DNA of 64,000 nucleotides. Source: Clostridia bacterium. GTDB lineage: Bacteria > Bacillota > Clostridia > TANB77 > CAG-465. Positions 19,972-56,271 of the stretch are shown piece by piece. The position numbers were made by a program, and so were the translations under genes. The notes beneath the pieces are model-generated. The model saw nothing but the letters and a program-made list of their open reading frames with translations. It was not told where the DNA came from and ran no database searches. The stretch's first letter is position 1; each line of letters opens with the position of its first letter. Location of the stretch: positions 68,883 to 132,882 of the forward strand of contig JAZKXT010000004.1 in assembly GCA_045611765.1 (NCBI GenBank), in the 5' to 3' direction.

Positions 19972-20238
19972 TTACCAAGCTTGATCAGTAATAAAGTTAT
20001 GTATCATAACCTGAGAATATGTTCTCCTACCGAACAGCTTCTTATTGGTGAAGCGCCCATTCTCATAACGCCAACCTTCTGGATAAGTAAGAGTTTCCGG
20101 ACGTACCGTGGTAACAATTTTTCTGACTCTACCAGTTACAGGTGACAACCTTACGGAAACCCTGCCCGGATTGAGCATTTGAAATACTGCCGCAGCTATC
20201 TCCAATTTCATCTCACACATCTTAACCTGTTTTGCCAT
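19972..20238 (-). CDS. hypothetical protein (88 aa) in a GC-rich (about 45%) patch immediately 3' of tRNA-Cys
   Basis: Start moved to the second ATG (GGAGG 9 nt upstream). Composition foreign to the host. Confidence 0.4.
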   Translation of the reverse strand: MAKQVKMCEMKLEIAAAVFQMLNPGRVSVRLSPVTGRVRKIVTTVRPETLTYPEGWRYENGRFTNKKLFGRRTYSQVMIHNFITDQAW

Positions 20239-32695: not shown

Positions 32696-32879
32696 ATGTT
32701 CACCTCTAAATTATTATATATTTAATAACATGAATTGTCAAATGTATCTCCTTTTTTTGACAATTTATGTTATAAGAAACATTACTTCTATTCACTCCTA
32801 TCGTCAAAATTTACTATTAATTTTTTATACCATGATATTTTACCCACTATATTTATGTGATAAGTATATTCTACAAACT

Positions 32880-32909
32880 AATAGAGGTAACCTTATTGTT
32901 ACCTCTATT
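32880..32909. terminator. terminator (AATAGAGGTAAC-cttatt-GTTACCTCTATT) at the 3' end of the large operon
   Basis: 12-bp perfect stem seen directly, 14 nt after the giant gene's stop. Confidence 0.5.
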
Positions 32910-32922
32910 CTTAACATATTTA

Positions 32923-35900
32923 TTAGTCAAAATCTGTTGCAGCTCTTGAGTCTAAGTCATATAACATTACTGTTCCTTTTACTTCATTGTATACTGTATC
33001 TGATGTTATATTCCATACGCCGCCTTCAAGTCTTAATGAAACATCGTTATTCGATGTTACAGCTTTTCCATAATTCGAATAACCCATAAATCCTTCATAA
33101 TCCCATTGACTTGTGTTTGCCTTTCCAGCTTGAGTATCTTTAGAATAAGATAAGTCTATTCCATTTGAGCTAGCTATTATATCAAAGACCACTCCTATGT
33201 AACCATTTGTTAATGGTTTATTTATATCATAGTTGCCATTCTTATCTACTTTTACCGCAATTGTTGAGTTAGGTAGTTTATATTCTCCATAATATGTTAT
33301 TACAGAATCGTTTGCATTTGGAGTCGCCATTTTATACGTTAACTCTATCGTTCTTAAGTGACCTATATTTATAGATGATTTAGAAAAATGATCTGTTACT
33401 TCATCTTGTATATATCTATATCCATCATTTGGTGTAAAGTTTATATTATAACCTCCACCATCATTGTCTATTCTTACATACTTGCCATTGCTTGCTTTAT
33501 AGAATAAATATATTCCTTCACTCTTATTAGAACTATCATATTCTTTCAAATATGTTTTTCCGTCTTTTGAAATATAGTAAAATCTTGTGTTTATCGTTAC
33601 TTGCTTTTCATTATTTGCTGAATCACCTTTATAATATGATCCAGTAACGTTCATATCAAAACTAAATCTATATCCCATCTTAGGAGCATTTATGTATGTA
33701 TTATCCGTATTTTTATATGGTCCTATAGGAAGTGTTCTAAGAGGATTTCTTCCGATTTCAGTAAGTGTCCTTGGTACTATTTCATTAGTTTGAGTTGATT
33801 CCTTCTTCCATTTTGTAATACCAGAATAATATACTGTCCCATTATGAACGTTTACTTTACTAGACGTATTAGTTCTAAATACACTCTTCCAGTTTACATC
33901 TTTTACATCTGTCACTTTAAATCCATATATCCTATTTAATATTAATATTTTATTTTGGTTTTGTTCTGCAAAATAACTTGGATGTTCACAGATGTTCTCT
34001 ACATCTTCTTTCATCTCATTGGCAAGTTCTTCTATCGCTTTATATCGTGTTGATTCACTTAACATTAATGATGTTGAATTATATGCCGTTGCTCTTACAT
34101 GATATTGAACCTCTCCTTCAGAAAGCGGAGATACATCTAGCTCATCCACTGCCCCGTATGCCTGCGCTGTAACTTTACCTATGCCACTTGCATTTCGCTT
34201 CACTCTTATCCACGTTCCAGCTATTACTTTTCCACCACCATTATATACTCTATCATTTATAAATACCTTGTGTACATCAAAATCAAATTTGATATAATAT
34301 GGAGAACTATAAGATGATGTTGCTCCATAGTCAGTTGTATCATTTAATCCATAAACATTATTCTTTGTCACATCACCAAATGTTAGTGTTTTTGACATGT
34401 TGTTAATTGTTATTGTAAATGGAACATTTGATTGAACTAGCCCGTTTCCTTCATTTTTTGTAGATTGGTCAACTATATTATTTGAAGTAGTTTCGAATGC
34501 AGAATTTACCGTTATTGGTGTATATATATTTATAGGATCAACATATTCATATCTAGGATTATCCACAGTAGGCTCATTATTTATTTGATATTTCTGTATT
34601 AAATTAGTGTGAGTCCTATAAAAACTTGAATCCTTATACTCATCAGATATAGATGGATAATATACTGTATCTTTAATTCCCGTAATATCCGAATAACCAA
34701 TTCCCATTAAATCTTTTAAAGTATATTTTACTTCTCCTGCTAAAACTCTAACTCCATTTAATATATTATAGTGAATATGTCCTCTGGCCTCTACATAGTC
34801 TTGCTCACCTATTCCCGTCTCATAATATTCTTTAGGTATTTTAATAGGGGTTGTTTTTACTTCTATTTTTCCTTCAGGATTATCTATATCTGTTAATAAT
34901 TCTGCTATTTTATATGTTTTCTCAACTTTATTGTTAGGCTGAGCACTATTTAAAAGTATATCATCGACTTGAACATCCATGTTTTGTACTCTCAATTTAA
35001 ATGTTATATCATAGGTCGAAGCCACATCGGCATTGTTATCTGTTTCTGATTGACCATACATAAACATATACTCATCATAACGTACCTTGCCTGTTGGATA
35101 ATTCTCAATCATCCACTCCCATTCTTCATTCCACTCCGAATATTGTGTAAGCGCCTCCCCTACTTCTTCGTTAAGAACAATATACTTAGCAATATTCACA
35201 AGGAAAGAAAGTTCTTTATCTATCTCTTTTTCTATATTTCCCAATGCAGTATCTATGTTTTTCATTTGGGAATATATAGCTGTAATCTGGGCATTTCTCT
35301 TCGAAACATAGTCATCAGTAGTTCCTGCACAGTAGCCTTGCCATGCGTAAATTAAATTGTCGTCATCCCAACATTTAGCTCCTTCGTGGCTATTAGCTGC
35401 ATTAACTTCGTTTGTTAACTTAGTTTTATAATTTAATATTGAACCTTCTTTACTCCAACTGTATATAACTCTACTATAACCATTAAGCGCCACTGCAACA
35501 GACTCCAATGAAAATTCTATACTCTTTGTTACACCATCAGGTTTAATAACTAGTTTGCTACCAGTAGAGTTATAATACGTTTTTATTGGATTATCGTATC
35601 CACCTAATTTATCGGCGCCTTTCATAAATGAAATATAACTATTTGTCTTATTAACAAGATATTGAGCTGTATCACGCGCTTCCTTCCACGTTGTATATGA
35701 TGTTCCTATATTCAAACTGTCATAACACTGACCAACATAAATATTCAGTCCACCAGCAAACCATTTCTTCTCACATTTCAAATTTTTAAATGAGTCTGTA
35801 ATATTATCATTTAACAATTTTCTAGTGTCACTAACTGCATTTTTTAATTCTGTTAATTTTTCTTTTATCTCAGCTTCATTGGCTAGTGCTTCTTCCCAAG

Positions 35901-38900
35901 AAATTTTAGTACTAATTTCTATCTCATCTTTTAGGTCTTCAAGTTCTTGTTTTTTTGCATCCCATAAATCCTTTGCCTTTTTACGTTCTAATCTAACGTA
36001 TTCTACATCATCTTTATTTATTACGCCATTACTATTAGCGTCTAACTTTTTAGCATCATATTCATAATTAATTGTATGGAATGATGAGTCTGCCCAATTA
36101 TATGACGAGATTTTAACAGAATAGCTATTATCTGCCTTATCCGGATCCGGATTTGCTCCATTCCAACTCCCCTCATTAACATATTTAGCGCTATATGTTC
36201 TGTCTGTATAATTGCTTTCAATATCTATAGTATTTTTAGTGATTTCTCTTCCTTCCAATCCTGTCATTAACAATGTAGGGGTCTTGAAAACCGTCAATGT
36301 TTTTTTATTTTTTTCCCAGTTATATAAACTACTACCAACTGTAACTGCATCTATTGCTCCAGCATCATATAACGTTGCTTTATTAATGCTATATGCAGAT
36401 ATTTCTGTTACTTTATCATAACCAATTACTGTTGGATGATTAAAAGAAAATTGTATATCTTCAGACACAGGCTCGCCGCCAGCAATTGGACGTGTTCCTG
36501 ATACTAATATATCGTATACTATAGGGGTTTCATTTGTTGTGTATTGTGTTGTAACCGCTCCTAAGATAGCACGTGGTAACTTACTAGTTCCCGATTTTAC
36601 TATTGATACTGTACTATCATGACCAGACGGCATCGAGTATGTAGAATAAGATGATTCTCCTTTATACGTATCATCATAACAAGTCGTATTCGGAGTAGTA
36701 GAATCTGATACATCTACTGTCACCTTACCACCAATTACAGGAGTAGGTTCTGTTTTAATCGTCTCATCCTTATAATAATAGAACCAAACTTCTCTAACAG
36801 ATGCGTAATCCTCATTCAACTTAACCTCTACACCATTAGTAGAATCTTTTTCGTTATTCGCAATTCTTGTAATGTCTGACCTTGATGTATATGCATCACT
36901 CCACCTTCCATCTGTCCCCTCAGACAAATCATAGCCTTTATATACTATTCCATTTTTTATTTCTACAGGCTTAACAACCAAGTGTTCATTTGTCTTCATA
37001 CTTATTGGATATACTTCTTTTGTAAATTGATCGTTATTCATTCTCTCTATATCAACTCTATACGTTGGAGTAATAATGTCCCACCAAGCAGATGGTCTTA
37101 TTTCTATTTGAGCTTTAGAATTAGGAACTATGCCTGTTTTATCCGATTCAGGTACTAAAGTAAAGTCTGTTACATCATCATCACCGTTATCCTTAATATA
37201 ACGGTGATATACTGTTACCTCACCAGCATAATCTGAATAATACAAGTCTATCATGTATACTTTATTCTCAGACATTAACATTTCCGAATCGTCTTCATAT
37301 TCGGCATCCCATAAACTTAATTCGGTTACTTCATCTGGGCCCCAATCTTCTGGTGACCATTTTTCATATTTTCCTTTACGTATTCTAAATTCAAGTTGCT
37401 TTAATGCAGTATCATAATCTAACGCTGCTACAATATTAAATCCTATTAAATTTGTTTCAGGATATTTAACATCTTTAATGCTTAATGGGAAATCATAATA
37501 TTTTACACCAGAATATATTTCTGTAAAAGTTCTTCCATTTTCTGTAACTGTACCTGTAGTGTCATTATCTGGTACTGAGTTTAATACATTTCTATCATAA
37601 TCTAAAATTTCACCTAATTTATCTTGCAATGTACCCGTTACTGTGTCACTACATCTATCTGTACAACCTTGCGTTTTGGCTTCATCTAACGCACCTAAAA
37701 TACCACCTACACACGTATTAATGCAACTATTTCTATCCCAACTCCAATCATTGTTGATAGCCATTACGCTATCATTATTAACTAACTCTGTAGATATAAC
37801 ATTGTTAGTTCCAAGGTCAATATGTCTTACATATATTTTAGCATCAGATAGTTGTGGGAATAACAATTCGTTATCATATAAGTTAGCAACAGAGCCTAAC
37901 GCTAGAGAATATTCTTGTGGTTCAGTTCCATACAAGCTAACACTCCAGAATTTATTAGTAGCTGTTACTTTATTTTTGTCATCAAAAAACTCTCTTACTG
38001 TTCTAGATGCTATATATTTATTATCATAATTTTTAGATATTAACACCTGCGATATCATACAACCGTCTTCTTGTTCAGCAACAACCGCTGCATCAACAAA
38101 ATCCCCAACTATATTAGATGGTAGCACGTGATCGTCTACTATTACATTTCCTATTGTTGTTCCGTTATAATTATCATCTAGGTGTATCATGGCGCTTCTA
38201 AATATTGTTTGTTGAGATTCTTTTTTGTTTACTTTAAATGTTCTTTTTTCTTCATTATCTATATATCCACCAATTCTAGATACTGTATAAAATACATTAT
38301 CTGGTTTATCTTGAAAGCGTGCAAAATCATATTTGCTTGTATAAGATGGATATGAATGGAATAAGTTAACTGTTAACGACCCCAGCTCATCTTCAGGATC
38401 ATAATCTGCCCAATCATATACCTCGTCGTTATTTACGTCATATTGCTTCAATGACGAACTTTCACCAACATCGGTATAGTTAAGAGTATTAAATCCAATA
38501 GCCCCAACCCCAACCTTGTCAGCTGAATCTTCAATTTTTGCATATTCACTTAAATAATAATCTTTATGAAATATATATTGTGCTGTTACAAAAGTATTTA
38601 CAGCGGGCAATGGTACTGATGTACTTTCAACAACCCACTTAGAATCATACATTTTTCCGCCATACTCATATTGATAATAGTCACCATTTTTATCTAATTC
38701 ACGAACTAGCATATATCCTGACTTCTTATGATATTTTTTTACCGTTCCTGAATATGGAGTTGTAAATGTTCTAAATATCAATTCGTATGCGTCATCACCA
38801 TCGATATCTGTTTTCCATAAGTGATTAATTAAACCAACTCCAAGCACTTGATTAATATTAAAGAAGATTACACATAAAAACATTATGCTACATATAGTTA

Positions 38901-38916
38901 TTATTTTAGTTTTCAT
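32923..38916 (-). CDS. giant secreted/surface protein (1997 aa), last gene of the Tad-like operon
   Basis: N-terminal signal/anchor (MKTKIITICSIMFLCVIFFNINQVLG). Central coiled-coil about residues 1010-1090. One dockerin/EF-hand-like Ca loop (DANSNGVINKDD). Thr/Tyr/Asn/Gly-rich beta-type composition. No LPXTG. Confidence 0.6.
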   Translation of the reverse strand: MKTKIITICSIMFLCVIFFNINQVLGVGLINHLWKTDIDGDDAYELIFRTFTTPYSGTVKKYHKKSGYMLVRELDKNGDYYQYEYGGKMYDSKWVVESTSVPLPAVNTFVTAQYIFHKDYYLSEYAKIEDSADKVGVGAIGFNTLNYTDVGESSSLKQYDVNNDEVYDWADYDPEDELGSLTVNLFHSYPSYTSKYDFARFQDKPDNVFYTVSRIGGYIDNEEKRTFKVNKKESQQTIFRSAMIHLDDNYNGTTIGNVIVDDHVLPSNIVGDFVDAAVVAEQEDGCMISQVLISKNYDNKYIASRTVREFFDDKNKVTATNKFWSVSLYGTEPQEYSLALGSVANLYDNELLFPQLSDAKIYVRHIDLGTNNVISTELVNNDSVMAINNDWSWDRNSCINTCVGGILGALDEAKTQGCTDRCSDTVTGTLQDKLGEILDYDRNVLNSVPDNDTTGTVTENGRTFTEIYSGVKYYDFPLSIKDVKYPETNLIGFNIVAALDYDTALKQLEFRIRKGKYEKWSPEDWGPDEVTELSLWDAEYEDDSEMLMSENKVYMIDLYYSDYAGEVTVYHRYIKDNGDDDVTDFTLVPESDKTGIVPNSKAQIEIRPSAWWDIITPTYRVDIERMNNDQFTKEVYPISMKTNEHLVVKPVEIKNGIVYKGYDLSEGTDGRWSDAYTSRSDITRIANNEKDSTNGVEVKLNEDYASVREVWFYYYKDETIKTEPTPVIGGKVTVDVSDSTTPNTTCYDDTYKGESSYSTYSMPSGHDSTVSIVKSGTSKLPRAILGAVTTQYTTNETPIVYDILVSGTRPIAGGEPVSEDIQFSFNHPTVIGYDKVTEISAYSINKATLYDAGAIDAVTVGSSLYNWEKNKKTLTVFKTPTLLMTGLEGREITKNTIDIESNYTDRTYSAKYVNEGSWNGANPDPDKADNSYSVKISSYNWADSSFHTINYEYDAKKLDANSNGVINKDDVEYVRLERKKAKDLWDAKKQELEDLKDEIEISTKISWEEALANEAEIKEKLTELKNAVSDTRKLLNDNITDSFKNLKCEKKWFAGGLNIYVGQCYDSLNIGTSYTTWKEARDTAQYLVNKTNSYISFMKGADKLGGYDNPIKTYYNSTGSKLVIKPDGVTKSIEFSLESVAVALNGYSRVIYSWSKEGSILNYKTKLTNEVNAANSHEGAKCWDDDNLIYAWQGYCAGTTDDYVSKRNAQITAIYSQMKNIDTALGNIEKEIDKELSFLVNIAKYIVLNEEVGEALTQYSEWNEEWEWMIENYPTGKVRYDEYMFMYGQSETDNNADVASTYDITFKLRVQNMDVQVDDILLNSAQPNNKVEKTYKIAELLTDIDNPEGKIEVKTTPIKIPKEYYETGIGEQDYVEARGHIHYNILNGVRVLAGEVKYTLKDLMGIGYSDITGIKDTVYYPSISDEYKDSSFYRTHTNLIQKYQINNEPTVDNPRYEYVDPINIYTPITVNSAFETTSNNIVDQSTKNEGNGLVQSNVPFTITINNMSKTLTFGDVTKNNVYGLNDTTDYGATSSYSSPYYIKFDFDVHKVFINDRVYNGGGKVIAGTWIRVKRNASGIGKVTAQAYGAVDELDVSPLSEGEVQYHVRATAYNSTSLMLSESTRYKAIEELANEMKEDVENICEHPSYFAEQNQNKILILNRIYGFKVTDVKDVNWKSVFRTNTSSKVNVHNGTVYYSGITKWKKESTQTNEIVPRTLTEIGRNPLRTLPIGPYKNTDNTYINAPKMGYRFSFDMNVTGSYYKGDSANNEKQVTINTRFYYISKDGKTYLKEYDSSNKSEGIYLFYKASNGKYVRIDNDGGGYNINFTPNDGYRYIQDEVTDHFSKSSINIGHLRTIELTYKMATPNANDSVITYYGEYKLPNSTIAVKVDKNGNYDINKPLTNGYIGVVFDIIASSNGIDLSYSKDTQAGKANTSQWDYEGFMGYSNYGKAVTSNNDVSLRLEGGVWNITSDTVYNEVKGTVMLYDLDSRAATDFD

Positions 38917-40292: not shown

Positions 40293-41357
40293 CTATGGTT
40301 TGCATATTGGACATGGATAATACCCTTGCGTTGCCGCTTCAGCTCTATTTATATAAAATGCTGGCACTAATTTTTCTTCTGTATGGTTTTTCCATGATAA
40401 ATAAGCTTTACACTCATTCGACATATGATATAGGTTTCTTGCTAAATAAGATATATCTGTTCCAGATTCAGAAACCACGCCTTTACTTAAATAATATTTG
40501 TTTGCCGATACCAAATCCGATGCACTATATGCTTTATAATTTAAATATCTATTTCCTAAAGATATTCCTTGGATTATTGCTATCATTCCTATTCCGTCCA
40601 TTGTCTCATACCATTCTTCATCAGATGCTACCGAAAACTGAAACGAATACTTTATCCCAGTAAGCCTTGCAAAATCATTATGTTTATTTACAGCATAAGA
40701 TATTTCTTGCATTGCAATTCTTGCTATAGTTGCTGTTCTAATAGATTCTAATTCTTTTATCTTAGCATTATTACCTAATACACCATTCATTTTTGAATCA
40801 GTTAAATAAAAAGATCTCGTATCATATATTTCTCCATTAGATCTATACCTAGTAAGATATATATAATCATCCATTGTAAACGTTACTTCATATGTAAGGC
40901 TACCACTAGTATATGTGTGCATATACTTTACCTTGGGTTTAGTTACAAATATTGTGTTACCAGTAGTTATATCTTTTTCAGCTGAATGTATATATATACC
41001 ATCATAATCTAATACAGCTACAACAGGTATGTACATTTTAAGATGCTCTAACGACATAGTATTATTATTAATATTAAAGCTACTAGAAAGAGAATTAAAG
41101 AATGTATTTACAGCCATATTTGCATTTATACTAACTTTATTATCTACTATTCCCGAATAACCATAATCTATGTTTTCATCTTCATTTTCTACCTGTTTCA
41201 TGGAAGAAACAGCATCCTGAACTGCTGAATTCATCAGATTCTTATAATACATCTCCTGCTTCTCGGATTTTACTAAAAATGATATATTAACATACACTAT
41301 TATAACCACAGGTAAAAATATTGCTACAAATATTAGTGCAAAATCTGTTAATCTCAT
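40293..41357 (-). CDS. N-terminally anchored (pseudopilin-like) extracellular protein (354 aa) ending in Cys-rich YYPCPICKP
   Basis: N-terminal MRLTDFALIFVAIFLPVVIIVYV hydrophobic segment. Confidence 0.5.
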   Translation of the reverse strand: MRLTDFALIFVAIFLPVVIIVYVNISFLVKSEKQEMYYKNLMNSAVQDAVSSMKQVENEDENIDYGYSGIVDNKVSINANMAVNTFFNSLSSSFNINNNTMSLEHLKMYIPVVAVLDYDGIYIHSAEKDITTGNTIFVTKPKVKYMHTYTSGSLTYEVTFTMDDYIYLTRYRSNGEIYDTRSFYLTDSKMNGVLGNNAKIKELESIRTATIARIAMQEISYAVNKHNDFARLTGIKYSFQFSVASDEEWYETMDGIGMIAIIQGISLGNRYLNYKAYSASDLVSANKYYLSKGVVSESGTDISYLARNLYHMSNECKAYLSWKNHTEEKLVPAFYINRAEAATQGYYPCPICKP

Positions 41358-41431: not shown

Positions 41432-44400
41432 TTAATTGACTACAAATGTTCTACTTACTTCTTCTACATTGCCAGCTATATCATATGTTCTTATAGTAGC
41501 TGTCATTGTTCCTTTTTCGGTAATTGTTTTTGTTATACTGCCACCTGCATTACTTATACTTCCAGATATCACATGTGTGCCATCAGATTTAACAAGTTCA
41601 TATGTACATCTATCGAATCCACTTAAATTATCTGAACCTGCTATAAACTCCATTTTCACTTGTCCCGAGTATACATGCGTATACCAATCCATTGTATAAA
41701 TATCATTAAACTTCATGTTCGTACCAGTCGGAGCAGTTTTGTCTAGTTTAATTGTTTTTTCTTCCAATACTGAATTGCCATTTGAATCCTTAGTCGTTAT
41801 TGTGACTTTTGTTCCGCTAGTATTAGAAGTTATTTCATTACGAGACAAAGTAACCATAACCTCTCCACTATTGTCACTTCCACCTGTATACGATAAAGCA
41901 ACATTTTGATTATACCATTTACCCTCCTCGTAAGACTGGCCGTTTACAAGTAATGTTGCAGGCATTGGTGGTAGTTTGTCTATCACTGTCGTACCTATAT
42001 TTCCTGCTTTATCCTCAAGGGCAATTGTTAACTCATATTTGCCATCACTAGGTAACGTTACATCGCTAGACGTTCCACTGCTTATCCCACTACTAGTTTC
42101 TAATTGCCATCTTCTAGCTTTAAAACCAGAACCATACTCTGTATAATCTAAATATCTTTTCTGACCAGCAACTGATGTGACTAAAGCTGGTGGTGTAGTA
42201 TCTACTTTTATAGACCTTGTCTCAGATGTGCTTGACTTTCCAGCTTGTGTATACGTAGTTGCGTATAACGTATATTGTCCATCGGCTAAGTCTTTTTCTT
42301 TAACGAATGTAGTAAACTTTTCACCAACTCCATTTACATATAAATATCCATATGAATACCCTGATGCTGCGCTTCCTGTATCAACAGTTATTTTCACTTT
42401 TGGTTTAGTAATATACCAACCTTCATTGCCTAATCCACCTTCTATTATCTCTAGAGTGGCTGGTTTCGGATTGGATTTATCAAATTTTAGTTCTCTCGTA
42501 CTTTCGCTATAGTTTCCAGCCTTATCATATGTTCTGGCTATAATTTTATACTCTCCGGGCTCCGTTAAAGTTACGGATGTCGGATTAAAGCTATTATAGT
42601 TAACACCTTCATTTTGAACTGGTCCTTCTATTTCATATGTAGTTTTCCAAAATCCACTTGTTGTATCTGAACCATTGGAAATTTTTATAGTAATACTAGG
42701 AGCTATAGCAGTATCATATGCTAAATACCAGCCTGTACTTCCATAATAATAGCCAGATACATTTACAGCAATAGTTGGTGAAGTTGGCGCGTTCTTGTCT
42801 ATTTTTACCTCAAGTGCAACTTTGTCACTTTCATTTCCAACATAATCTTCTGCATAACCTCGCACCGTTCTTGTACCATTCCATGATACAGGATATGTGG
42901 TTACATCATATAAAGAATCGTATAAAGTTAAAGCGTTTTGGATTTGTAAAACGTTACGCCATACACCACTTCCACCTTTATCCGCTGTAGAAGGCGCTAG
43001 ACTTATCGTTACATCAGACCTGTACCACGTTACATCGTCTACTGTGTTGCTAACCCCTTCGGCAACCAAACTAGGTGGAAAAGGCTTTTTATCATCTTCA
43101 AGTACTTTGTACCCATTGCTTTTAGCTCCAGCCAATGCAAGTAATACAGTATCTGAATGTGGATTATTATCTATAATTGTTCCTTCTTCTTCTATGTAGA
43201 TATCATTTAATAATTCGCGTTCTATTTCTTTTTGCGCCCAACCTTCCTCTAATTGAAAGTAATTATTATTGCTAGTTCCAGTGTGTGCGAATTTTACCAA
43301 AACGCGTTCCGCATATTGTGACAGAATATCTACTCTATACTCACCCATATATAACTCTTCATCTGTCCAACTCTCAACAGTCAAATTATTTACATTCTTT
43401 AATGTATCAGAATTCTTTATAGCCTTTTCTATTTTCTCTTTAATAGCTTCTTGATTAGTTGTACCTAGTCTTGGAAAAGATATTATAAAACAAATTTCTT
43501 GGTCTTCAGTCGCTTTTATATAATTATCCACCCAACTGTCATTAACATAAGCTGTATTGTCTACCATTCTAGACTCGGCTAAATTATTAGTTTTTACTAG
43601 CTTCTTCCAATTATATGGCCCTAAAATAGTAGTATGATTTCCCGAATTCTCATCAAATAATTCTATTGCAACCGTTTCTGCCGCAAGAGATGCTATGCCG
43701 TTTTTGTCCTCTCCCAATCCTGGTAATACTGTAACAGTTGCATCTGCAGCTATATAGTCTAAAACTGACATATGCACATTAGTAAGTTTTATTTCTAATT
43801 GATAGTAATCTTCCACGGATATAAAATTCAAAGCAATATTAGCATACATTCCATTTAATTTTATGTAATTACTTATTATATGATTTGCTATATCACTACT
43901 CCATACTAAATCTTTTATAGGAGTATAAACATTTCCTGTATCTATCTTATCAAAATTTCTTAATTCAGCTAGAATTGTTATTTCTGTATTATTTGAATCT
44001 GACAAGTCATATTGATATACATATTGTCTTTCTTCAACTTTTTCACACAATTCTGCAAGTTCCGAATCTATATCTACATCATCACAATTTAACTCGTCAA
44101 CAAAGCTCGATTCTGTTATCACAGATTCTTTTTGTATGTTAGTTTCTCCTTTTTTGTTAACAGGAACTGTTAATATAACTTCCGGAACTATGTCTTGAGA
44201 TGCTTGTATTTTATTATATAATTCCCAGTTTACATTATTAATGGCCCCACCATAGCTTATATTTACTATTTTACTGTTTGACGATTCTGAAAAAGAATCA
44301 CGTAAAATACTCGCTATGGTTTTGTTTGTGTTATATACTTTAACATATATCTCGTCGTTTTTCTTTAATAAATATACTCCGTCTTTTATATTTGTTTCAT

Positions 44401-44776
44401 TTGCACTAATCTTATTAGTTTGCTTATCTTCCCATACATCAAATATGTCTTGAGTATTATATAATATTTTTTGTTCACCGTATGTTTTAACATTGCCATC
44501 GGAATCTCTTTCCTCTGGAACAAGAATACTTCTATATGCCTCTATAGACACATTATATATATTGCCTGTGGACGCTATAGCATTCATATAGTCTGTATAT
44601 GATTGTTCATCTATAAATCCATTGGTCCTAACCTTATCCACAAAATTAGTAGTGGCAGTTAAAACAATGTTATATGCCATGTTATCTTGTCTATCTGCCA
44701 AACTGTATAATGGAAATATAACTACAAAAAATGTTCCTATAATAGTTGCAATTATAATGCTTATAGTATCTTTCAT
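41432..44776 (-). CDS. large pseudopilin-like protein (1114 aa): pilin-type N-terminal helix + six C-terminal about 90-aa beta-sandwich repeats each ending in a D-x-A-G-N motif
   Basis: N-terminus MKDTISIIIATIIGTFFVVIFPLY... is homologous to that of the 405-aa protein. Repeats: EDYVGNESD, YDKAGNYSE, YTQAGKSST, EDKAGNIGT, DSNGNSVLE, YDIAGNVEE. Confidence 0.55.
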   Translation of the reverse strand: MKDTISIIIATIIGTFFVVIFPLYSLADRQDNMAYNIVLTATTNFVDKVRTNGFIDEQSYTDYMNAIASTGNIYNVSIEAYRSILVPEERDSDGNVKTYGEQKILYNTQDIFDVWEDKQTNKISANETNIKDGVYLLKKNDEIYVKVYNTNKTIASILRDSFSESSNSKIVNISYGGAINNVNWELYNKIQASQDIVPEVILTVPVNKKGETNIQKESVITESSFVDELNCDDVDIDSELAELCEKVEERQYVYQYDLSDSNNTEITILAELRNFDKIDTGNVYTPIKDLVWSSDIANHIISNYIKLNGMYANIALNFISVEDYYQLEIKLTNVHMSVLDYIAADATVTVLPGLGEDKNGIASLAAETVAIELFDENSGNHTTILGPYNWKKLVKTNNLAESRMVDNTAYVNDSWVDNYIKATEDQEICFIISFPRLGTTNQEAIKEKIEKAIKNSDTLKNVNNLTVESWTDEELYMGEYRVDILSQYAERVLVKFAHTGTSNNNYFQLEEGWAQKEIERELLNDIYIEEEGTIIDNNPHSDTVLLALAGAKSNGYKVLEDDKKPFPPSLVAEGVSNTVDDVTWYRSDVTISLAPSTADKGGSGVWRNVLQIQNALTLYDSLYDVTTYPVSWNGTRTVRGYAEDYVGNESDKVALEVKIDKNAPTSPTIAVNVSGYYYGSTGWYLAYDTAIAPSITIKISNGSDTTSGFWKTTYEIEGPVQNEGVNYNSFNPTSVTLTEPGEYKIIARTYDKAGNYSESTRELKFDKSNPKPATLEIIEGGLGNEGWYITKPKVKITVDTGSAASGYSYGYLYVNGVGEKFTTFVKEKDLADGQYTLYATTYTQAGKSSTSETRSIKVDTTPPALVTSVAGQKRYLDYTEYGSGFKARRWQLETSSGISSGTSSDVTLPSDGKYELTIALEDKAGNIGTTVIDKLPPMPATLLVNGQSYEEGKWYNQNVALSYTGGSDNSGEVMVTLSRNEITSNTSGTKVTITTKDSNGNSVLEEKTIKLDKTAPTGTNMKFNDIYTMDWYTHVYSGQVKMEFIAGSDNLSGFDRCTYELVKSDGTHVISGSISNAGGSITKTITEKGTMTATIRTYDIAGNVEEVSRTFVVN

Positions 44777-44882: not shown

Positions 44883-45146
44883 TCATGAAGTATTGCACCG
44901 TTGTAAAAAAATATTATCTCCCGACTTGCTTCCATAATGTCTTATCTCTGGCCCTGTATATAATCGTTCATGGTCTTCGCCAATACTTTCTGCAAGTGTA
45001 CCATTCATCCCAACAATATACGGTTCATTCATAATTTCAACCATGTCTAGAATACTGGTCATAAGAGTAACACCTGCACTTAAAGCTATAGCAAATATAA
45101 ATACATAAATTCCTATCATTATTGCTTCACTTGCTGATTGCTCCAT
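44883..45146 (-). CDS. small pilin-like protein (87 aa)
   Basis: MEQSASEAIMIGIYVFIFAIALSAGVTLM: short polar leader then a hydrophobic helix. RBS GAGGGGGAAAG. Confidence 0.45.
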   Translation of the reverse strand: MEQSASEAIMIGIYVFIFAIALSAGVTLMTSILDMVEIMNEPYIVGMNGTLAESIGEDHERLYTGPEIRHYGSKSGDNIFLQRCNTS

Positions 45147-45147
45147 A

Positions 45148-45597
45148 TTATTTTCTTTCCCCCTCTAGCTCATAACGAATTATTATATCGCCGTTATATT
45201 CATATACTTTTACGTCATATTTATTTTCATAACTGAATAATTCTCCTTGAAATTTTTTATTTCCTTCCATTAATTCTTGGAGTTTTTGTGATGGTCTCTG
45301 TCCGTTTGCCTCTGCCACTGATTCAATATTATCTCTTTTAAAATATTCTACCACTATATTTTGATCAGTATATTCGTATTTTTTTACAACATTAAGTAGA
45401 CCGACACCTGTATCTTTTCTCCCATCATACATTGCGTAAATATTATCAAACTGACTATATATATCCGTATCTGTTTCATCAACAAAACCAAATATTTCTT
45501 TCATTTGACTAAACATAGCAAAAAGCGCTGTTGCAATCGACACTGTAATAAACAAACTAACAGCTATAATTACCACTTTAGTTGACAACGCATCCAC
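45148..45597 (-). CDS. pseudopilin-like protein (149 aa), GTG start
   Basis: MDALSTKVVIIAVSLFITVSIATALFAMF N-terminal helix. RBS AGGTGGTG. Confidence 0.45.
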   Translation of the reverse strand: MDALSTKVVIIAVSLFITVSIATALFAMFSQMKEIFGFVDETDTDIYSQFDNIYAMYDGRKDTGVGLLNVVKKYEYTDQNIVVEYFKRDNIESVAEANGQRPSQKLQELMEGNKKFQGELFSYENKYDVKVYEYNGDIIIRYELEGERK

Positions 45598-45621
45598 TTA
45601 ATTCACCACCTATCCTATTAA

Positions 45622-46839
45622 TTAGTATGACCACACTCCAACTATTTGCCTTCTTCCATCAAATTTTTTACTAGCCTCATCCATCTCATCATACTTTCCA
45701 GCGTTATATGTCTGTGTAGTCAAATACCCAAACTTAGGAACACTTTCTAATTTTATACTTTCTTCCACTTTTTTATCATTAATATATAAATTAACTATAC
45801 ATTCTTTATCCTGTACTTTATCTACTGCAATTTCTATTTTAGTATCTGCCATTATATCTGTTGGATAAGATAAAATTGTAGTATTTTCAACAAGAATTGA
45901 AACTCCATTCAAGCCAACACTTACAAGCATGTCACCGGTATTGACAAAGTTGTACATTAATTGTATATCTCCTGTATTTAATACCCCTTTTGCTCTTAAT
46001 TCTGTTACCGTTTTTGGCGTAACTTTCAAAGCAACTTTATAATCATCGGTCGGATTTATAATATTCAAGTTTGAAGTGCTATGTTTCATTGCTTTTAATC
46101 CCACAACACTACTTGTAATGCTACCATAATCTACTTCGCCTATCCATTTACTAGCTAAAATTCTTCCGCCATAATTTACATATAGTCTAGTATTTGTATC
46201 TATAGCGTTTGCTGTTATAGAGTTATATAAAATTGTTGCCAATGTAGTATTAGTATTACGTATAGTTACATTAAAGTTGTCTCCTTCATTTAACAAATAT
46301 GCATAATGTTCTGTTCCATTAGATAGATTTAATTTTTTTTCATTTTCTAAAATATTTACAATATGCTCTGTTGTATATACTTGCTTAGATACCCTATATG
46401 TATCTTCAGACATAAAATCTGTTGGAATTTTCCCAAGTTTACCTGCTAAAAATTTATCCTGTTCATCCTTTTCTAACCCCATTTTATCTTCTGCAGATAA
46501 CCACTCTTCTTTTTGTTCTTGTGTTGTTGTTGCGACTAGTTCATACTTTCCATCCTTTTTTATATAATAATTGGTTATAGGATCATACCTTGTATATTCA
46601 TGTGTAAGTTCTATATCATACGAATTGCCTGTAAGGCGAAGTCTTCTTTCGTAATCACTATACATGTCCCTTGTTATATATCCCTTATTTCTTACTTCAT
46701 CTACAAAATCTTGTGTGTACCTCATAGCAAGTATATATGATATATCGTCTTTCTTTTCATATGCCATATATACAGGGAATATGAAAAGAAGAACTATGGA
46801 TATTATAACAATAACAATTGTTTGTAAACTGTCTTCCAC
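45622..46839 (-). CDS. pseudopilin-like protein (405 aa) sharing an N-terminal module with the 1114-aa protein
   Basis: MEDSLQTIVIVIISIVLLFIFPVYMAYEKKDDISYILAMRYTQDFVDEVRNKGYI matches MKDTISIIIATIIGTFFVVIFPLYSLADRQDNMAYNIVLTATTNFVDKVRTNGFI. Confidence 0.5.
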   Translation of the reverse strand: MEDSLQTIVIVIISIVLLFIFPVYMAYEKKDDISYILAMRYTQDFVDEVRNKGYITRDMYSDYERRLRLTGNSYDIELTHEYTRYDPITNYYIKKDGKYELVATTTQEQKEEWLSAEDKMGLEKDEQDKFLAGKLGKIPTDFMSEDTYRVSKQVYTTEHIVNILENEKKLNLSNGTEHYAYLLNEGDNFNVTIRNTNTTLATILYNSITANAIDTNTRLYVNYGGRILASKWIGEVDYGSITSSVVGLKAMKHSTSNLNIINPTDDYKVALKVTPKTVTELRAKGVLNTGDIQLMYNFVNTGDMLVSVGLNGVSILVENTTILSYPTDIMADTKIEIAVDKVQDKECIVNLYINDKKVEESIKLESVPKFGYLTTQTYNAGKYDEMDEASKKFDGRRQIVGVWSY

Positions 46840-46851
46840 TTGTTATCCCCC

Positions 46852-47259
46852 TTAATAATCAATTATCTTATCTGGAGAAGAAATATACAATATCTCTCCT
46901 TCTTTTGTCACTGTATAGTTCCAAATTGGATTTATTTTATCTAGCATTTCTTCCTTAATATTGCCTGTACTATATCGCCAACTCCCACCTAATGTAGTGC
47001 CATTAAACCTTATTGATACGCTATCATCTGTTATATATTTAGTTATTAACGAACGCACATCTACCCCTGTTAAAGTCGTCGCATCTAAATCTTCCTTTTT
47101 CATTATTTCATCATATTCTGAAGCTATATCTGTCCTATGCCCCACTTGTTCAGCAACATCTATTGCTTTACCATAATATATTGTCATGGCGGATATAACC
47201 CCCATTATTATAAAAACTGAAACACTTATAAAAATAATCCTTACTGACCACTCTTCCAT
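46852..47259 (-). CDS. pseudopilin-like protein (about 135 aa)
   Basis: Start at the second ATG (AAGGGGA RBS). MEEWSVRIIFISVSVFIIMGVISAM N-terminal helix. Confidence 0.45.
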   Translation of the reverse strand: MEEWSVRIIFISVSVFIIMGVISAMTIYYGKAIDVAEQVGHRTDIASEYDEIMKKEDLDATTLTGVDVRSLITKYITDDSVSIRFNGTTLGGSWRYSTGNIKEEMLDKINPIWNYTVTKEGEILYISSPDKIIDY

Positions 47260-47360
47260 AATGTTCCCCTTTCTAATTAACAAATATAAAAAGAATTGAT
47301 TATACCGTGTTTAATTTCTTCTTATATTTATTAATTTCAATATAAATTAACATATCTTAA

Positions 47361-47391
47361 AATAGCCTTAAAAAGGCATACAACATAATTA
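47361..47391 (-). terminator. attenuator-type hairpin (AAAAGGCATA-N11-TATGCCTTTT) immediately 3' of the candidate major subunit gene
   Basis: 10-bp perfect stem seen directly, in the 133-bp gap inside the operon. Confidence 0.45.
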
Positions 47392-47416
47392 TATGCCTTT
47401 TAAGGTTAAAATTTAA

Positions 47417-47863
47417 TTATATAGCTTTTTTGAAATATAAGCCTATAACATTTCCATTCGTATCAAGAATAACAGCAGAAGTATACCTTTCACTCTTAAT
47501 AGCAGCTAGAGCATCGGTTAAATTAGGTGTGGCTGCATTCTTAGTAGAAGAAACAAGACCACCTGCTTTTGGACTACCTGTTACTGTTAGTGCATATTTA
47601 CCATAGTTGGTACTATCTATAAGAATTCCCATGCTTTTTATGTATTTTCTAACAGCTGTTCCTACAGAAGTTGCGCTTAATGTTTTTCCGTCATATACAT
47701 TGTATAATTCGTTTTTTAAATCTCCTGTTATGCCAGAAATTTGTCCACCAGCTTCATCCATCATTCCAGTACCTAAGTTTACTATTAATAGTACTGCAGA
47801 TATGATTATGATTGTAATGAAAAGTCCAACACCAATCATAATCGCTTTTTCTGTATTATCCAT
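47417..47863 (-). CDS. candidate major filament subunit (148 aa) with archaeal/Tad-type class-III-like N-terminus
   Basis: MDNTEKAIMIGVGLFITIIIISAVLLIV. Strongest RBS in the operon (AAAGGAGGT). Preceded by a 110-bp gap and followed by a hairpin, the usual arrangement for a highly expressed major pilin. Confidence 0.45.
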   Translation of the reverse strand: MDNTEKAIMIGVGLFITIIIISAVLLIVNLGTGMMDEAGGQISGITGDLKNELYNVYDGKTLSATSVGTAVRKYIKSMGILIDSTNYGKYALTVTGSPKAGGLVSSTKNAATPNLTDALAAIKSERYTSAVILDTNGNVIGLYFKKAI

Positions 47864-47972: not shown

Positions 47973-50069
47973 TTACATGTTCAATACTGACATTTGTGAT
48001 ACGAGTTGCATTATGCTCACAAGTAGTAATGGACCAACAAAGTATGCCGCTACCAATATTATTAAAGGAGTAAATCCAATTGCATTTCCCATAGTAGATT
48101 TTTTGTTTATTATTCTTTCGTTTGTTTCTTTCCTTTTTTCATATTGGAAACTTCTCTCTGTTTCTAGTTCATCAAAGGCTTCTCTTATTGGTATTCTTTC
48201 TACCGCCGAAATTAACGCTTCTACTATACGCTGGAAGTCTTTTTGTGGAACTGAATCCTTTAAGTCCTCTAAAGCTTCAATTGCACCTGCTTCATAGTTG
48301 TTTAAAGCTGTAGAAATCGGCTCTTTATATGCGTATGAATATCTTTCAAGCCATTCTAATACCGTTTGTACATCAACTCTTTCAATATACATAAGCATTA
48401 GTATTATTGACCTAAACTGCATTATTTCGTCTTCTCTTTCCAAAGCCCTTATTTTATTTTTAATAATTAAAACAATATTTGGTATGAAATATACTCCCCA
48501 TGCAACGAGCAGCGCTATTATCATTTCCCAAAATTTCATGAAATTATCTTTGACGCCTTCTATTTTCCCAAGAACTCTTTCAACATCACTATCCAAAACC
48601 TTTTGTTCCTCTTCAGCTCCCGATGCGCCCATTTGTTTTTCTAGTTCATATCTTACATCTTCTTCTGTAACATTTTTTTCGTTCTTTAGCTTGTCTACAA
48701 TTTCCTTGTCGCTTTTATTTAACGCTTCTGCCGCTTGTCTGTCTTCGTCAGATAGGGCTCCAAGGCTTAAGAATTCTTCGCTAATTTCATTATATATACT
48801 ATTTAAATCTATCGCATGTATATTTATTAACAAAACAAACATGGCTACAAAAGCTATAATCGCATACGTAAACTTATTAATGTAGAACCACTGCAGAGTT
48901 AAATATGAGTTTGTCGACTTAATTCTTTCAGTAAGTCTTTTATGTTTCCTCGTATGCTCGCTTGGCATGAAACCTCTTATTACAAATTTAACAAGTGGAA
49001 ATTTGTAAAGCTTATCTTGCCATTTTTCAGTTACAATTCTATCGAATTTTATTTCGTTAGAATCTTCTCTTATTAGTTTTAAGGCAAAGTATGCTACAAA
49101 TATTGATACCATTATTAGTGTACGGATTACAAATCCAATACTGCTTGAATAGAAATTTATAAGTGCTGGGAAGTTTGTTGATGCCCAGTTTTCTACAATT
49201 TGTAGGAAGAATATTGGTGCTATAGCTATTGCTGTCAAACTTCTAAATTTATAATTTATTTTGTCTTTTTTTAGTAGCTCCAAATATACATCGTTTAGTA
49301 TATTGTTTAAGTTTTTTAAGTATACTGACACTCCCTCTACTTTTCTATCTCCAAGTTCCATTGTAAGATAGGATACACCAGCAAAAAGTTTTAAAAATTT
49401 ATTTGGTGCCGTATCATAATATTTCTCAAGCATTACGTCAGGATTATCTGATGTTATAGCATCTCTAATTCTTCTTATTTGAGGCATTATTTCTTTGTCC
49501 TCAAGCTCTTCTATAGCATCATTAAATGCTTCTTCTATCATACCATGCTCATGGAATGAGTGTCTTATTTCTGTAAAAACTTCCGGTAATTGTGTCATTA
49601 TCTTATCTGCTACTTTATTAACCCTAGAGTTAACCATAACATCATTTATTATGAACACCATAAGTATTACAACAATTGCCGTATATAAATCCGAAACTAC
49701 ATTTAAGAAGACAAACAGCGCTGCAAATATAAATAATAAAGATAGTAACATTATCGAGCCTGTTTTTCTTCTTATTTCATACTCGGTATAATCATTTACC
49801 ATTTCTAGTTTAAGTCTTGTCTTTCTAGTATAGTATTTTATAACTGGTAGTTTTACCAATATTAAATATGCTACTTGAAATACTCTATCCAAAATATCCT
49901 TAATACTTGTTTTATTCTTTACAACTATTTGATCTTTTTGAAATAGCTTTGAATTACTTGCATATTTTTTCTTTGTTACATTATAGTATATTATAACAGC
50001 AAGTAAGCCTAAAAAGGCAATTCCAACCATGCCAATTATAATATACAGAGTTCCATTACCCGCTGCCAT
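47973..50069 (-). CDS. GspF/TadB/TadC-family inner-membrane platform protein, apparently two fused T2SSF-like modules (698 aa)
   Basis: Two repeats of a TM helix, cytoplasmic helical domain, then TM helices. Adjacent to the secretion ATPase. Confidence 0.5.
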   Translation of the reverse strand: MAAGNGTLYIIIGMVGIAFLGLLAVIIYYNVTKKKYASNSKLFQKDQIVVKNKTSIKDILDRVFQVAYLILVKLPVIKYYTRKTRLKLEMVNDYTEYEIRRKTGSIMLLSLLFIFAALFVFLNVVSDLYTAIVVILMVFIINDVMVNSRVNKVADKIMTQLPEVFTEIRHSFHEHGMIEEAFNDAIEELEDKEIMPQIRRIRDAITSDNPDVMLEKYYDTAPNKFLKLFAGVSYLTMELGDRKVEGVSVYLKNLNNILNDVYLELLKKDKINYKFRSLTAIAIAPIFFLQIVENWASTNFPALINFYSSSIGFVIRTLIMVSIFVAYFALKLIREDSNEIKFDRIVTEKWQDKLYKFPLVKFVIRGFMPSEHTRKHKRLTERIKSTNSYLTLQWFYINKFTYAIIAFVAMFVLLINIHAIDLNSIYNEISEEFLSLGALSDEDRQAAEALNKSDKEIVDKLKNEKNVTEEDVRYELEKQMGASGAEEEQKVLDSDVERVLGKIEGVKDNFMKFWEMIIALLVAWGVYFIPNIVLIIKNKIRALEREDEIMQFRSIILMLMYIERVDVQTVLEWLERYSYAYKEPISTALNNYEAGAIEALEDLKDSVPQKDFQRIVEALISAVERIPIREAFDELETERSFQYEKRKETNERIINKKSTMGNAIGFTPLIILVAAYFVGPLLLVSIMQLVSQMSVLNM

Positions 50070-52004: not shown

Positions 52005-52811
52005 CTATATTCTTACGCGGTCTAAAACCGCTTTTGTTATATTTCTTATTTCATGAATAAAATATCCATTATAGTCATTTTTTTCAGCATTTAAGTTTTT
52101 ATAAAAGAAATCAATTACATTTCCATCATTACATGCATCTGTAAACACGTAGTTATGTGGTATGCAATGTATTGGCTCTTTTATTCCATACTTTCTGCGA
52201 ATATTTGGGATATTATATTTAGATTTTTCCTCATAATTACACATTAAAAGCATTTTAGGTTTATTCTTTATAATCTCATTTGAAAGATATTTATCCATTG
52301 CTTCCTCTAAAAAGACTTCTTCTTGATTCATAGTACAAATTACATAGTCTGCCTTTTCCAACTCATCTGTTATATATGATTTTTCAGTACCCTTAGGTAA
52401 ATCTAACCAAACCAAATCATATGTTTCATTTGCTTTATTTACAACCATTCCTAAACTGTTGGTAAGTTGGCTAAATTGTTCTCTACTTGCAACATTTGTA
52501 CCATACATTACATCAAGTCTTTGTTTTAAAACTGGTTTTGCATAGTTTCTTATACTTTCAGGAGTAAGTTTATTACTCTCAACAAGTCTTGCTAAAGCTG
52601 TAATACCAATACTTGAACTATTGAACACATTCTGTGCTTTTAAAGAACTGTAATCTGTAAATGAGCTTTCAATTTTTTTAGCTTGCCAATGTGCGTGTAG
52701 AAGTATATTAGAATAATCTTCTTCAATCGCCATCAAAGTACTAACAGCTACACTTGCATGCGTTTGTCCTATAGAAGTAGCTACCGGGCTCCAAAATACT
52801 ATCTTTGGCAT
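52005..52811 (-). CDS. MinD/ParA-fold protein with degenerate P-loop (TadZ/CpaE-like pseudo-ATPase?)
   Basis: KIVFWSPVATSIGQTHASVAVSTLMA aligns to the deviant Walker A xKGGxGKT[T/S], but with GQT replacing GKT. Confidence 0.4.
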   Translation of the reverse strand: MPKIVFWSPVATSIGQTHASVAVSTLMAIEEDYSNILLHAHWQAKKIESSFTDYSSLKAQNVFNSSSIGITALARLVESNKLTPESIRNYAKPVLKQRLDVMYGTNVASREQFSQLTNSLGMVVNKANETYDLVWLDLPKGTEKSYITDELEKADYVICTMNQEEVFLEEAMDKYLSNEIIKNKPKMLLMCNYEEKSKYNIPNIRRKYGIKEPIHCIPHNYVFTDACNDGNVIDFFYKNLNAEKNDYNGYFIHEIRNITKAVLDRVRI

Positions 52812-53536: not shown

Positions 53537-53550
53537 TTGTTCCTCCTATT

Positions 53551-54660: not shown

Positions 54661-54688
54661 ATGTATAAACCTCCATAATACTGTCAAA

Positions 54689-56095: not shown

Positions 56096-56271
56096 AGTTT
56101 TCCTCCTTAACCTTGTTACAATATATGGGCTAAATGCATGTTTTATGATTATTTTGATGCTACTAAATAAACCCAACGAGGAGCCTTAATATCCCCGCCC
56201 GCCACTCACGGTATACGCATCATTAACTTCCTTATGATATTCGTGTAAAAGGCTTTTTAAGCATAGAAAAT

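Follow-up and report, generated by a model that had tools for sequence, protein, structure and literature searches.

Gene organization of the locus

We analyzed a stretch of 64,000 nucleotides (below, the window, with position 1 at its first letter) from a Clostridia bacterium (GTDB lineage Bacteria; Bacillota; Clostridia; TANB77; CAG-465) [Genbank: GCA_045611765.1], contig JAZKXT010000004.1, positions 68,883 to 132,882 of the forward strand, and describe here its largest open reading frame (ORF), termed the giant, together with the operon to which it belongs. The giant ORF has an intact reading frame with an ATG start, encodes 1997 amino acids (aa; the runner-up in the window encodes 1114 aa), and is 100% identical to one NCBI protein. 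It is the final member of a 16-gene operon with the gene order CpaB-like, two ParA/TadZ-like, ATPase, platform, pilin-like genes, p354, p450, and giant. The features of the operon are as follows (positions in the window, strand in parentheses).

32880-32909 (-): terminator-like hairpin with a 12-bp stem, 17 nt past the giant stop codon
32923-38916 (-): giant ORF, 1997 aa
38926-40278 (-): p450, bitopic protein with a Lys-rich cytoplasmic tail, one transmembrane (TM) segment, and an ectodomain of ~380 aa; dedicated partner of the giant
40293-41357 (-): p354, pilin-like N-terminal helix and a C-terminal H/C...CPxC motif; a plasmid ortholog exists (see below)
41432-44776 (-): p1114, large pilin-like protein with immunoglobulin (Ig)-like domains (Big_13, OmpL47-type; domain matches)
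44883-47863 (-): pilin-like p87 (frameshifted), pil149, p405, pil143, and pil148, each with a hydrophobic N-terminal helix behind a short polar leader
47973-50069 (-): polytopic platform protein TM698, 698 aa, a TadC+TadB fusion according to PMC11680825
50079-51971 (-): CpaF/TadA-like secretion ATPase, 630 aa (matches to CpaF in PDB and to TIGR03819)
52005-54687 (-): CpaB-like SAF-domain protein and two ParA/TadZ-like proteins (profile matches; PMC11680825)
54689-54717 (-): operon promoter of the sigma-70 type, TTGACT-17-TATTAT, just past the terminator of the upstream penicillin-binding protein (PBP) gene

The giant ORF starts 9 bp after the stop codon of p450 (the 450-aa gene) and closes with a UAAUAA double stop. 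An earlier reading of this DNA, made from its letters without database searches (the sequence-only reading), had placed a terminator behind it; the hairpin of this terminator was found (-16.4 kcal/mol; z = -5.0 against shuffled sequences), whereas its U-tract is weak, for which reason the consensus terminator scan missed it. The gene after the giant encodes an AI-2E transporter and has its own perfect promoter (TTGACA-17-TATAAT, 32713-32741). Because of the hairpin and this promoter, we regard the giant as the last gene of the operon; the ORF calls, the hairpin, and the downstream promoter all agree with the sequence-only reading, in which it was the largest ORF of the window and the last of its operon.

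The giant family and its linkage to the pilus genes

A word-indexed search with the full-length giant as the query returned three proteins, including two homologs, and with a C-terminal profile it returned 27 proteins, nearly all of which were C-terminal fragments. The two closest homologs occupy syntenic loci, sharing the upstream genes as well as the AI-2E and AMP-binding genes downstream, and they resemble the giant most in the last ~600 residues and least in the middle (50-69% identity in the last 350 residues, 10-25% in the middle, the length of which varies). An exhaustive profile search was performed with giant residues 1300-1997 (clusters at 50% identity), and at least 257 representative clusters were obtained at E < 1e-3 (176 at E < 1e-30). 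A module of ~530 residues forms the extreme C-terminus of every full-length member (900-2750 aa, with a signal peptide, from uncultured gut Clostridia) and ends in a near-invariant tail, ...KGTVxLYDxDxRAAxDF[ED] (...SRAATDFD in the giant). The N-terminal domain of the giant (residues 1-390) is also carried by about 40 of the representatives, and the middle region is variable and repeat-rich. A conserved C-terminus with a variable middle is what would be expected if the C-terminus contacted conserved machinery and the rest faced the environment. No Pfam match was found in five further members of the family, and tblastn of the giant C-terminus against phage genomes gave no match. The C-terminal module is a family without an existing Pfam model or annotation.

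For the linkage analysis, one genome per GTDB species was scanned with the giant C-terminal profile, and the loci were taken with 10-kb flanks (78 loci); the proteins of the window operon were then compared with all ORFs of these loci by local phmmer. All 78 loci belong to metagenome-assembled genomes (MAGs) of uncultured Clostridia/Bacillota and to CAG bins from human, sheep, rabbit, buffalo, and other guts. The order TM698, pil148, pil143, p405, pil149, p87, p1114, p354, p450, giant was kept wherever the 10-kb flank reaches. A metagenome scan anchored on the platform protein gave 61 loci. The long ones show the complete order, beginning with the PBP gene and CpaB and running through p450, after which the giant or a long ORF with a signal peptide follows where the flank extends. 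The full gene order was kept in more than 50 genome loci and in about 45 long metagenome loci. Homologs of p450 were found in 71 of the 78 genome loci, for 61 of 73 giants the gene immediately upstream is p450, and the primary copy directly follows p354 in 51 of 61 cases. Extra p450-giant copies were found in at least 10 places, in tandem (L027, L028, L032, L040, L048, L066, and L073) or apart from the pilus operon, in some cases as another locus within one MAG (L025, L034, L046, and L058); since p450 and the giant are duplicated together, in tandem or apart, we regard the pair as a cassette.

The giants of two loci (L021 and L061) have no adjoining machinery genes within the available sequence. 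In one locus (L114, 15969-18014), the cluster has neither p450 nor giant, and its p354 is enlarged to 681 aa. In a distant cluster (L141, 14859-17633; platform protein with 29% identity), the slot of the giant is occupied by an ORF of more than 924 aa with a lipoprotein signal.

Taken together, the conserved gene order supports well the membership of the giant in the pilus system, and at this level of genetic association the earlier proposal that it is the distal component or the cargo of a filament system is backed. As evidence that would speak against this proposal, the sequence-only reading had named homologs spread widely without the machinery genes or an annotated S-layer or toxin family; we found that homologs almost always adjoin the same machinery genes and that the giant is not in any such annotated family.

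Domain architecture of the giant

The giant was divided into the following parts on the basis of hydropathy, composition, comparison with the family, and AlphaFold2 (AF2) models.

38839-38916 (-): residues 1-26, predicted Sec-type signal peptide (hydropathy; same layout in relatives)
37747-38838 (-): residues 27-390, N-terminal alpha/beta domain (about 40 family representatives)
36043-37746 (-): residues 391-958, variable beta-rich region, in which CnaB/MucBP-like stalk modules are weakly suggested
36007-36042 (-): residues 959-970, EF-hand/dockerin-like calcium loop DANSNGVINKDD, between two predicted helices (AF2)
35782-36024 (-): residues 965-1045, charged helical segment free of Pro and Gly (composition; AF2 helix)
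32926-34533 (-): residues 1462-1997, family-defining C-terminal beta-sandwich module ending in ...KGTVMLYDLDSRAATDFD

The sequence-only reading had described the giant as a signal-anchored protein with a hydrophobic N-terminal leader. The leader was recovered by hydropathy as residues 1-26, the sole hydrophobic segment of the protein, and reads MKTK-IITICSIMFLCVIFF-NINQVLG/VG, with MKTK as the n-region, a hydrophobic core of 15 residues, and a cleavage-like site (VLG/V). Small residues (A or G at -1; also at -3) are kept in the leaders across the giant family. This layout and the conserved small residues fit a cleavable signal peptide, and the leader is probably such a Sec signal peptide rather than a signal anchor, with which the anchored form of the earlier description is not in agreement. 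The leader is of the ordinary Sec type with an AXA-like site, and a class III signal peptide with a hydrophobic alpha1-N helix was not present. Neither an LPXTG-type motif nor a C-terminal hydrophobic segment was found, so the giant is not of the sortase-anchored type, as the sequence-only reading had stated.

The full-length giant and five sub-fragments gave no match in Pfam, NCBIfam, or PHROG, residues 27-390 gave no match to a known fold, and neither the giant nor five other members of its family gave a Pfam match to SLH or CWB2 repeats. A PDB sequence search with the C-terminal profile of the giant also gave no match. AF2 models spanning residues 27-1000 and 1300-1997 were both mostly beta, with large stretches of low confidence, and bear out the beta-rich character noted from the sequence. 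The C-terminus was modeled as beta sandwiches, with a predicted local distance difference test score (pLDDT) of 80-93 over the last 350 residues. In a Foldseek search with the C-terminal model, the best matches were the Ig-like domains of the adhesins PrgB, BspA, AgI/II, and SpaP, with the Ig-like region of PrgB at the top; the similarity is weak, and it may point to a fibrillar, adhesin-like architecture, but no further.

The segment DANSNGVINKDD fits the canonical 12-residue loop of EF-hand and dockerin proteins. Among 134 full-length family members, 19 carry a loose pattern of the loop against 4.45 expected from shuffles, and 10 carry the strict pattern against 0.7 expected. In the closest subclade, the loop is found again at the corresponding junction; it was not found in the wider family. 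The calcium-loop motif of the sequence-only reading is therefore real in the sense that it fits an EF-hand loop and is enriched over shuffles in relatives. It is not a Dockerin domain (PF00404), since there is one 12-residue loop instead of two tandem segments of ~22 residues, and no Pfam match.

The neighboring residues 965-1045 consist of 46% D/E/K/R without a single Pro or Gly, and the relatives have long, strongly heptad-periodic stretches at this place. In the giant itself, a heptad test of residues 965-1045 found no continuous register, and a coiled coil is accordingly undemonstrated for it; of the charged coiled coil of ~80 residues that had been proposed, the charged helical segment stands, and the heptad register does not. 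Residues 980-1097 (35626-35977 (-)) gave the single PDB sequence match of the giant, a weak one to the four-helix bundle of cytochrome b562 (E 6e-5). This match is probably compositional, but would hint that the region forms a bundle of helices instead of a two-stranded coiled coil.

The architecture bears on whether the giant could be a secreted cargo, with the Tad-like machine driving the folded protein through the wall and into the medium in the manner of a type II secretion piston. That the giant closes a type IV filament operon and has a Sec signal fits this idea, and type IV pilus systems secrete cargo such as TcpF and CofJ, according to PMC12075869. The very large size, modular and stalk-like build, and variable length are, however, traits of a surface fibre rather than of a soluble effector, and the domain libraries gave no enzymatic or toxin domain, consistent with the absence of a recognizable enzymatic motif in the sequence-only reading. 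We consider a cargo quite improbable, and return below to the reading that we prefer, in which the giant is a surface component of the pilus system.

The operon machinery

The CpaB-like protein matched SAF (E 1.5e-7) and TIGR03177 (E 2.9e-7), and the matches of the ParA/TadZ-like proteins were weak (E 2.8e-4). The 630-aa ATPase matched Caulobacter CpaF in PDB (E 2.6e-7 over 270 residues) and TIGR03819 (E 3.6e-6); as it had no match to any secretion-ATPase family of Pfam at E <= 0.01, it is diverged. The platform protein TM698 had no Pfam or PDB sequence match, even with a 12-sequence profile, beyond chance level (E >= 0.1), and p450 had no match in Pfam or PDB, profile search included. By the CpaF match, the CpaB/SAF matches, and the structural annotation in PMC11680825, the operon machinery is Tad-like (type IVc-like) and diverged.

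Large proteins with a pilin-like N-terminus are p405, p1114, and p354. The N-terminal helix of the pil148 family, MDNAQKAIMIGVGLFITIIIIAAVMLI, is nearly invariant across species, and its head is variable. An invariant N-terminal helix with a variable head is typical of major type IV pilins. We note pil148 (47417-47863 (-)) as the candidate major pilin; it lacks Gly at -1 and Glu at +5, and a PDB search with its profile gave only chance-level matches (E >= 0.1). The Flp motif G/XXXXEY was not found in the pilin-like N-termini, which read MDNAQKAIMIGVGLFITIIII... and lack both the Gly at -1 and the EY. No A24 prepilin peptidase was found among the scanned ORFs, all of which lie beyond position 20000 of the window.

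Three further observations concern single genes. The p87 ORF (44883-45146 (-)) matches only residues 1-71 of orthologs of 144-166 aa, and the remainder is readable in another frame right behind its stop codon, in the ~100 bp downstream; the frameshift reflects either a pseudogene or an assembly error. The C-terminus of the extracellular p354 (40293-40400 (-)) carries the family-conserved motif LYH..C..Y ... YPCPxCxP, possibly a zinc site, for which the match to Ada_Zn_binding is weak and non-significant. A gene for a PBP5-type D-Ala-D-Ala carboxypeptidase (54812-56176 (-)), with its own terminator in the window, lies directly upstream of the CpaB-like gene, as it does in most metagenome loci; this may be either a functional link (wall remodeling for the pilus) or mere conserved synteny.

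Plasmid relatives and DUF5704 proteins

A tblastn search of PLSDB with the C-terminal 698 residues of the giant matched 23 plasmids (Paenibacillus, Lysinibacillus, Alkalihalophilus, Cohnella, Cytobacillus, Sporosarcina, and Thermobacillus). Among the matches listed (10 of the 23 plasmids), all lie in genes annotated as "DUF5704 domain-containing protein". With hhalign, the giant module and the plasmid proteins of this annotation were aligned at a probability of 99.85% (E 7.6e-31) and of 99.0% (E 9e-18), the homology covering about 430-490 C-terminal residues, including the terminal tail ...Y/F-x-x-D-x-x-x-x-x-D-F. The terminal 881-aa protein of the operon on Clostridium botulinum pINGR16-02E1 shares the module as well (probability 98.6%, E 7e-16); a 650-aa protein of Butyrivibrio pCY186 matched weakly (probability 73%) and was not counted as a family member. 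Neither the full-length giant nor five sub-fragments matched the Pfam domain DUF5704 itself (PF18964, 185 aa) at a cutoff as loose as E <= 1; in the plasmid proteins, this domain (E 1e-58 to 4e-80) precedes the shared module on the N-terminal side. We found no paper mentioning DUF5704 in a literature search, and nothing specific on plasmid Flp pili in the host genera.

Two plasmid loci were examined, those of P. urinalis (L143) and A. pseudofirmus OF4 pBpOF4-01 (L144). In both, the DUF5704-protein gene is the last structural gene and is followed by a GGDEF gene. The upstream genes are orthologous to those of the window operon (phmmer E: ATPase 1e-203, platform 1e-117, ParA 1e-42, p354 1e-37, CpaB 1e-32, and p405 N-domain 1e-25; pil148 was weaker, 1e-10), and the plasmid ATPase orthologs are annotated as TadA/CpaF. 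Orthologs of the ATPase were found on 34 Firmicutes plasmids, including those of C. botulinum, C. argentinense, C. beijerinckii, and Butyrivibrio, and all 34 are typed as non-mobilizable in PLSDB. The plasmid operons have as neighbors a replication-relaxation gene, genes of NlpC/P60 and cell-wall hydrolases (often inside or beside the operon), and a single-stranded DNA-binding protein (SSB) gene.

The plasmid operons have no homolog of p450, and its slot is taken by a secreted protein with an SLH or a Cu_amine_oxidN1 domain. Both are wall-binding domains, and the partner encoded upstream is therefore probably attached to the envelope. This agrees with an arrangement in which the giant would be a fibre anchored in the envelope, held by p450 or by the SLH/Cu_amine_oxidN1 partner, and co-expressed with the pilus without being carried by it. 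The p450-giant cassettes away from pilus genes, and the ordinary Sec signal of the giant in place of a pilin-type N-terminus, agree with it too. On the other hand, the module is conserved between TANB77 and the plasmids though the partners are non-homologous, which argues that it mainly touches a conserved part of the machine (p354 or p405, for example), and the primary copy almost always directly follows p354 (see above). We regard an anchored fibre as rather unlikely.

The plasmid occurrence of the ATPase and the genes that adjoin the plasmid operons (replication-relaxation, NlpC/P60, wall hydrolase, and SSB) also invite a comparison with PrgB, the Ig-like region of which heads the Foldseek list, so that the giant might be a cell-cell aggregation or mating adhesin of a pilus-based contact apparatus. 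In the present organism and its relatives, however, the operon is chromosomal, syntenic across species, and surrounded by AI-2E transporter, acyl-CoA ligase-type, PBP, and SpoVA genes; no VirB4, VirD4, or relaxase was found, the plasmids are called non-mobilizable, and the similarity to PrgB is weak. An aggregation or mating role is thus improbable. The pXO16 plasmid, which is known for aggregation-mediated conjugation, was considered as a relative and found no support: there was no Bacillus plasmid among the ATPase matches, and a review of pXO16 describes no Tad-like ATPase.

The GGDEF genes at the end of the plasmid operons bear on one more possibility, namely that the giant belongs to the exosporium, a spore appendage, or the S-layer and has no relation to the upstream genes. 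The host forms spores (SpoVAD is encoded in the window and CotF in relatives), and the giant is large and beta-rich. Against this stand its linkage to the pilus operon, the sigma-70-type operon promoter, the lack of SLH or CWB2 domains or collagen-like repeats in the giant, and the plasmid operons ending with GGDEF genes. An exosporium protein had been offered as an option in the sequence-only reading; no pointer to it was found, and we consider a spore or S-layer protein very improbable.

Proposed role of the giant

The evidence leans slightly toward the giant being a dedicated, non-pilin, Sec-exported surface component of the Tad-like pilus system, docked through its C-terminal module and with a probable role in display and adhesion. 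In this model, the giant would cross the membrane by the Sec pathway and have its signal peptide removed; its C-terminal module of ~530 residues with the tail would dock it to the distal machine (the p405/p1114/p354 complex and/or p450); and the remaining ~1450 N-terminal residues would extend outward as a long adhesive fibre, composed of a semi-conserved N-terminal head, variable beta modules, the EF-hand calcium loop, and a helical or coiled-coil spacer. Pilus polymerization would carry or expose the giant through the thick cell wall, and the giant would work in the manner of PilY1/PilC, though unrelated to them. We take the C-terminal module as the probable docking element because it is the sole part kept between the TANB77 and plasmid systems, which have the machine in common and the partner not, and because its tail is near-invariant. 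Mounting on a priming complex of the large pilin-like proteins is favored, since polymerization would then carry a protein of ~220 kDa through the wall.

Several points weigh against this proposal. A partner anchored in the envelope would suit a pilus-tip protein and a fibre anchored in the wall or membrane equally well. No canonical prepilin motif was found in the pilin-like proteins and no prepilin peptidase among the scanned ORFs, which makes true pilus polymerization questionable. Finally, since L114 has neither p450 nor giant and the giants of L021 and L061 have no adjoining machinery genes within the available sequence, the giant is neither strictly required nor strictly linked.

A wider view may be put forward tentatively, and we hold it to be doubtful in its full extent. 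In this view, p450 and the giant would together make up an exchangeable tip cassette, belonging to a hitherto unrecognized class of Tad-like pili that spans the Firmicutes, on the chromosome in TANB77 and on plasmids in Bacilli and Clostridium. The module would serve as a novel docking domain by which a non-pilin adhesin of 100-300 kDa is mounted on a monoderm pilus, and the giant, instead of the small pilins, would be the part of the TANB77 pilus that touches the host, or other cells in plasmid-promoted aggregation.

To our knowledge, no non-pilin tip or accessory adhesin has been established for Tad-type pili in monoderms. If the giant is the largest, most variable, and most exposed product of the operon, it is an obvious candidate for contact with host or mucus and for strain-level differences. 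A docking module common to chromosomal and plasmid systems would help to explain how such pili carry large loads through a thick wall. The orthologous system has culturable hosts (Paenibacillus polymyxa M1, Lysinibacillus sphaericus C3-41, and Alkalihalophilus pseudofirmus OF4) and is therefore experimentally tractable, and a module that has no Pfam model in spite of at least 257 representative clusters is an annotation gap.

Comparison with known systems

Kim et al. (Nat Commun 2024; PMC11680825) described a pilus cluster of 10-14 genes that is conserved in the uncultured gut order TANB77, where 122 of 129 species have it. Its Table 1 gives CpaB (358 aa), TadZ (231 aa), CpaE (280 aa), TadA/CpaF (640 aa), and a TadC+TadB fusion (693 aa), the halves of which are reported to be structurally homologous to TadC and TadB, and after the fusion there are seven pilin-like proteins of 143-621 aa (genes 927-938 in all). 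The pilin-like protein 938 is reported to activate dendritic cells via TLR4 and to improve the anti-PD-1 response in mice (PMC11680825). The upstream operon of the window agrees with this cluster in order, size, and annotation (CpaB-like 378 aa, ParA/TadZ-like 241 and 268 aa, ATPase 630 aa, and platform 698 aa), and from gene order and size the published 938 is probably the ortholog of p1114. The published set ends at 938, whereas the window operon continues with p354, p450, and the giant; p354, p450, the giant, an adhesin, or any downstream gene is not mentioned in the text of PMC11680825, and the other literature that we found on the TANB77 pilus was one review. The cluster is stated to be exclusive to TANB77 (PMC11680825), whereas orthologous operons were found here on plasmids of Bacilli and Clostridium. 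Hence, the machinery has been known since 2024, and the giant, its partner p450, and the shared C-terminal module are undescribed; as judged from the gene content, the conserved cluster is longer than reported and not exclusive to TANB77. If the giant is the exposed component, the published TANB77 gene set omits it.

The DUF5704 plasmid proteins resemble the giant in the C-terminal module and in the slot in the operon, and that of A. pseudofirmus also has a Sec signal; they differ in being half the size and plasmid-borne, in having a GGDEF gene next to them, and in the presence of the PF18964 domain. The AgI/II family, PrgB, SdrD, and the sortase pilins share with the giant arrays of Ig-like or CnaB-like beta sandwiches, a helical or coiled-coil spacer, and variable length, whereas the giant, unlike these Gram-positive fibrillar adhesins, has no LPXTG motif, and its similarity to them is weak in structure and absent in sequence. 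Herrou et al. (2025; PMC12075869) described the minor-pilin "Tip" complexes of the Tad/Kil pilus, cassette-borne distal modules that vary, can be exchanged for one another, and functionalize the pilus. The likeness is that both belong to Tad-type pili with cassette-encoded distal modules; the Kil Tips are pilins with a prepilin leader, whereas neither the giant nor the membrane protein with which it is paired is a pilin.

Like the giant, PilY1/PilC of type IVa pili are large, carry a Sec signal without being pilins, and have their genes behind those of the minor pilins. In both, a conserved C-terminal part is combined with a variable N-terminal part, and some genomes have paralogous copies. 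PilY1 has an EF-hand-like calcium site; the EF-hand loop of the giant lies outside the C-terminal module and is restricted to a subclade, and the class of pilus differs (Tad-like, monoderm). As a PilY1-type protein in the strict sense, the giant was rejected at the level of the fold, having no beta-propeller and no match to PF05567 or vWA. By analogy of function, we infer that the giant would be of the kind of PilY1, a non-pilin, pilus-associated adhesin, built on an unrelated fold.

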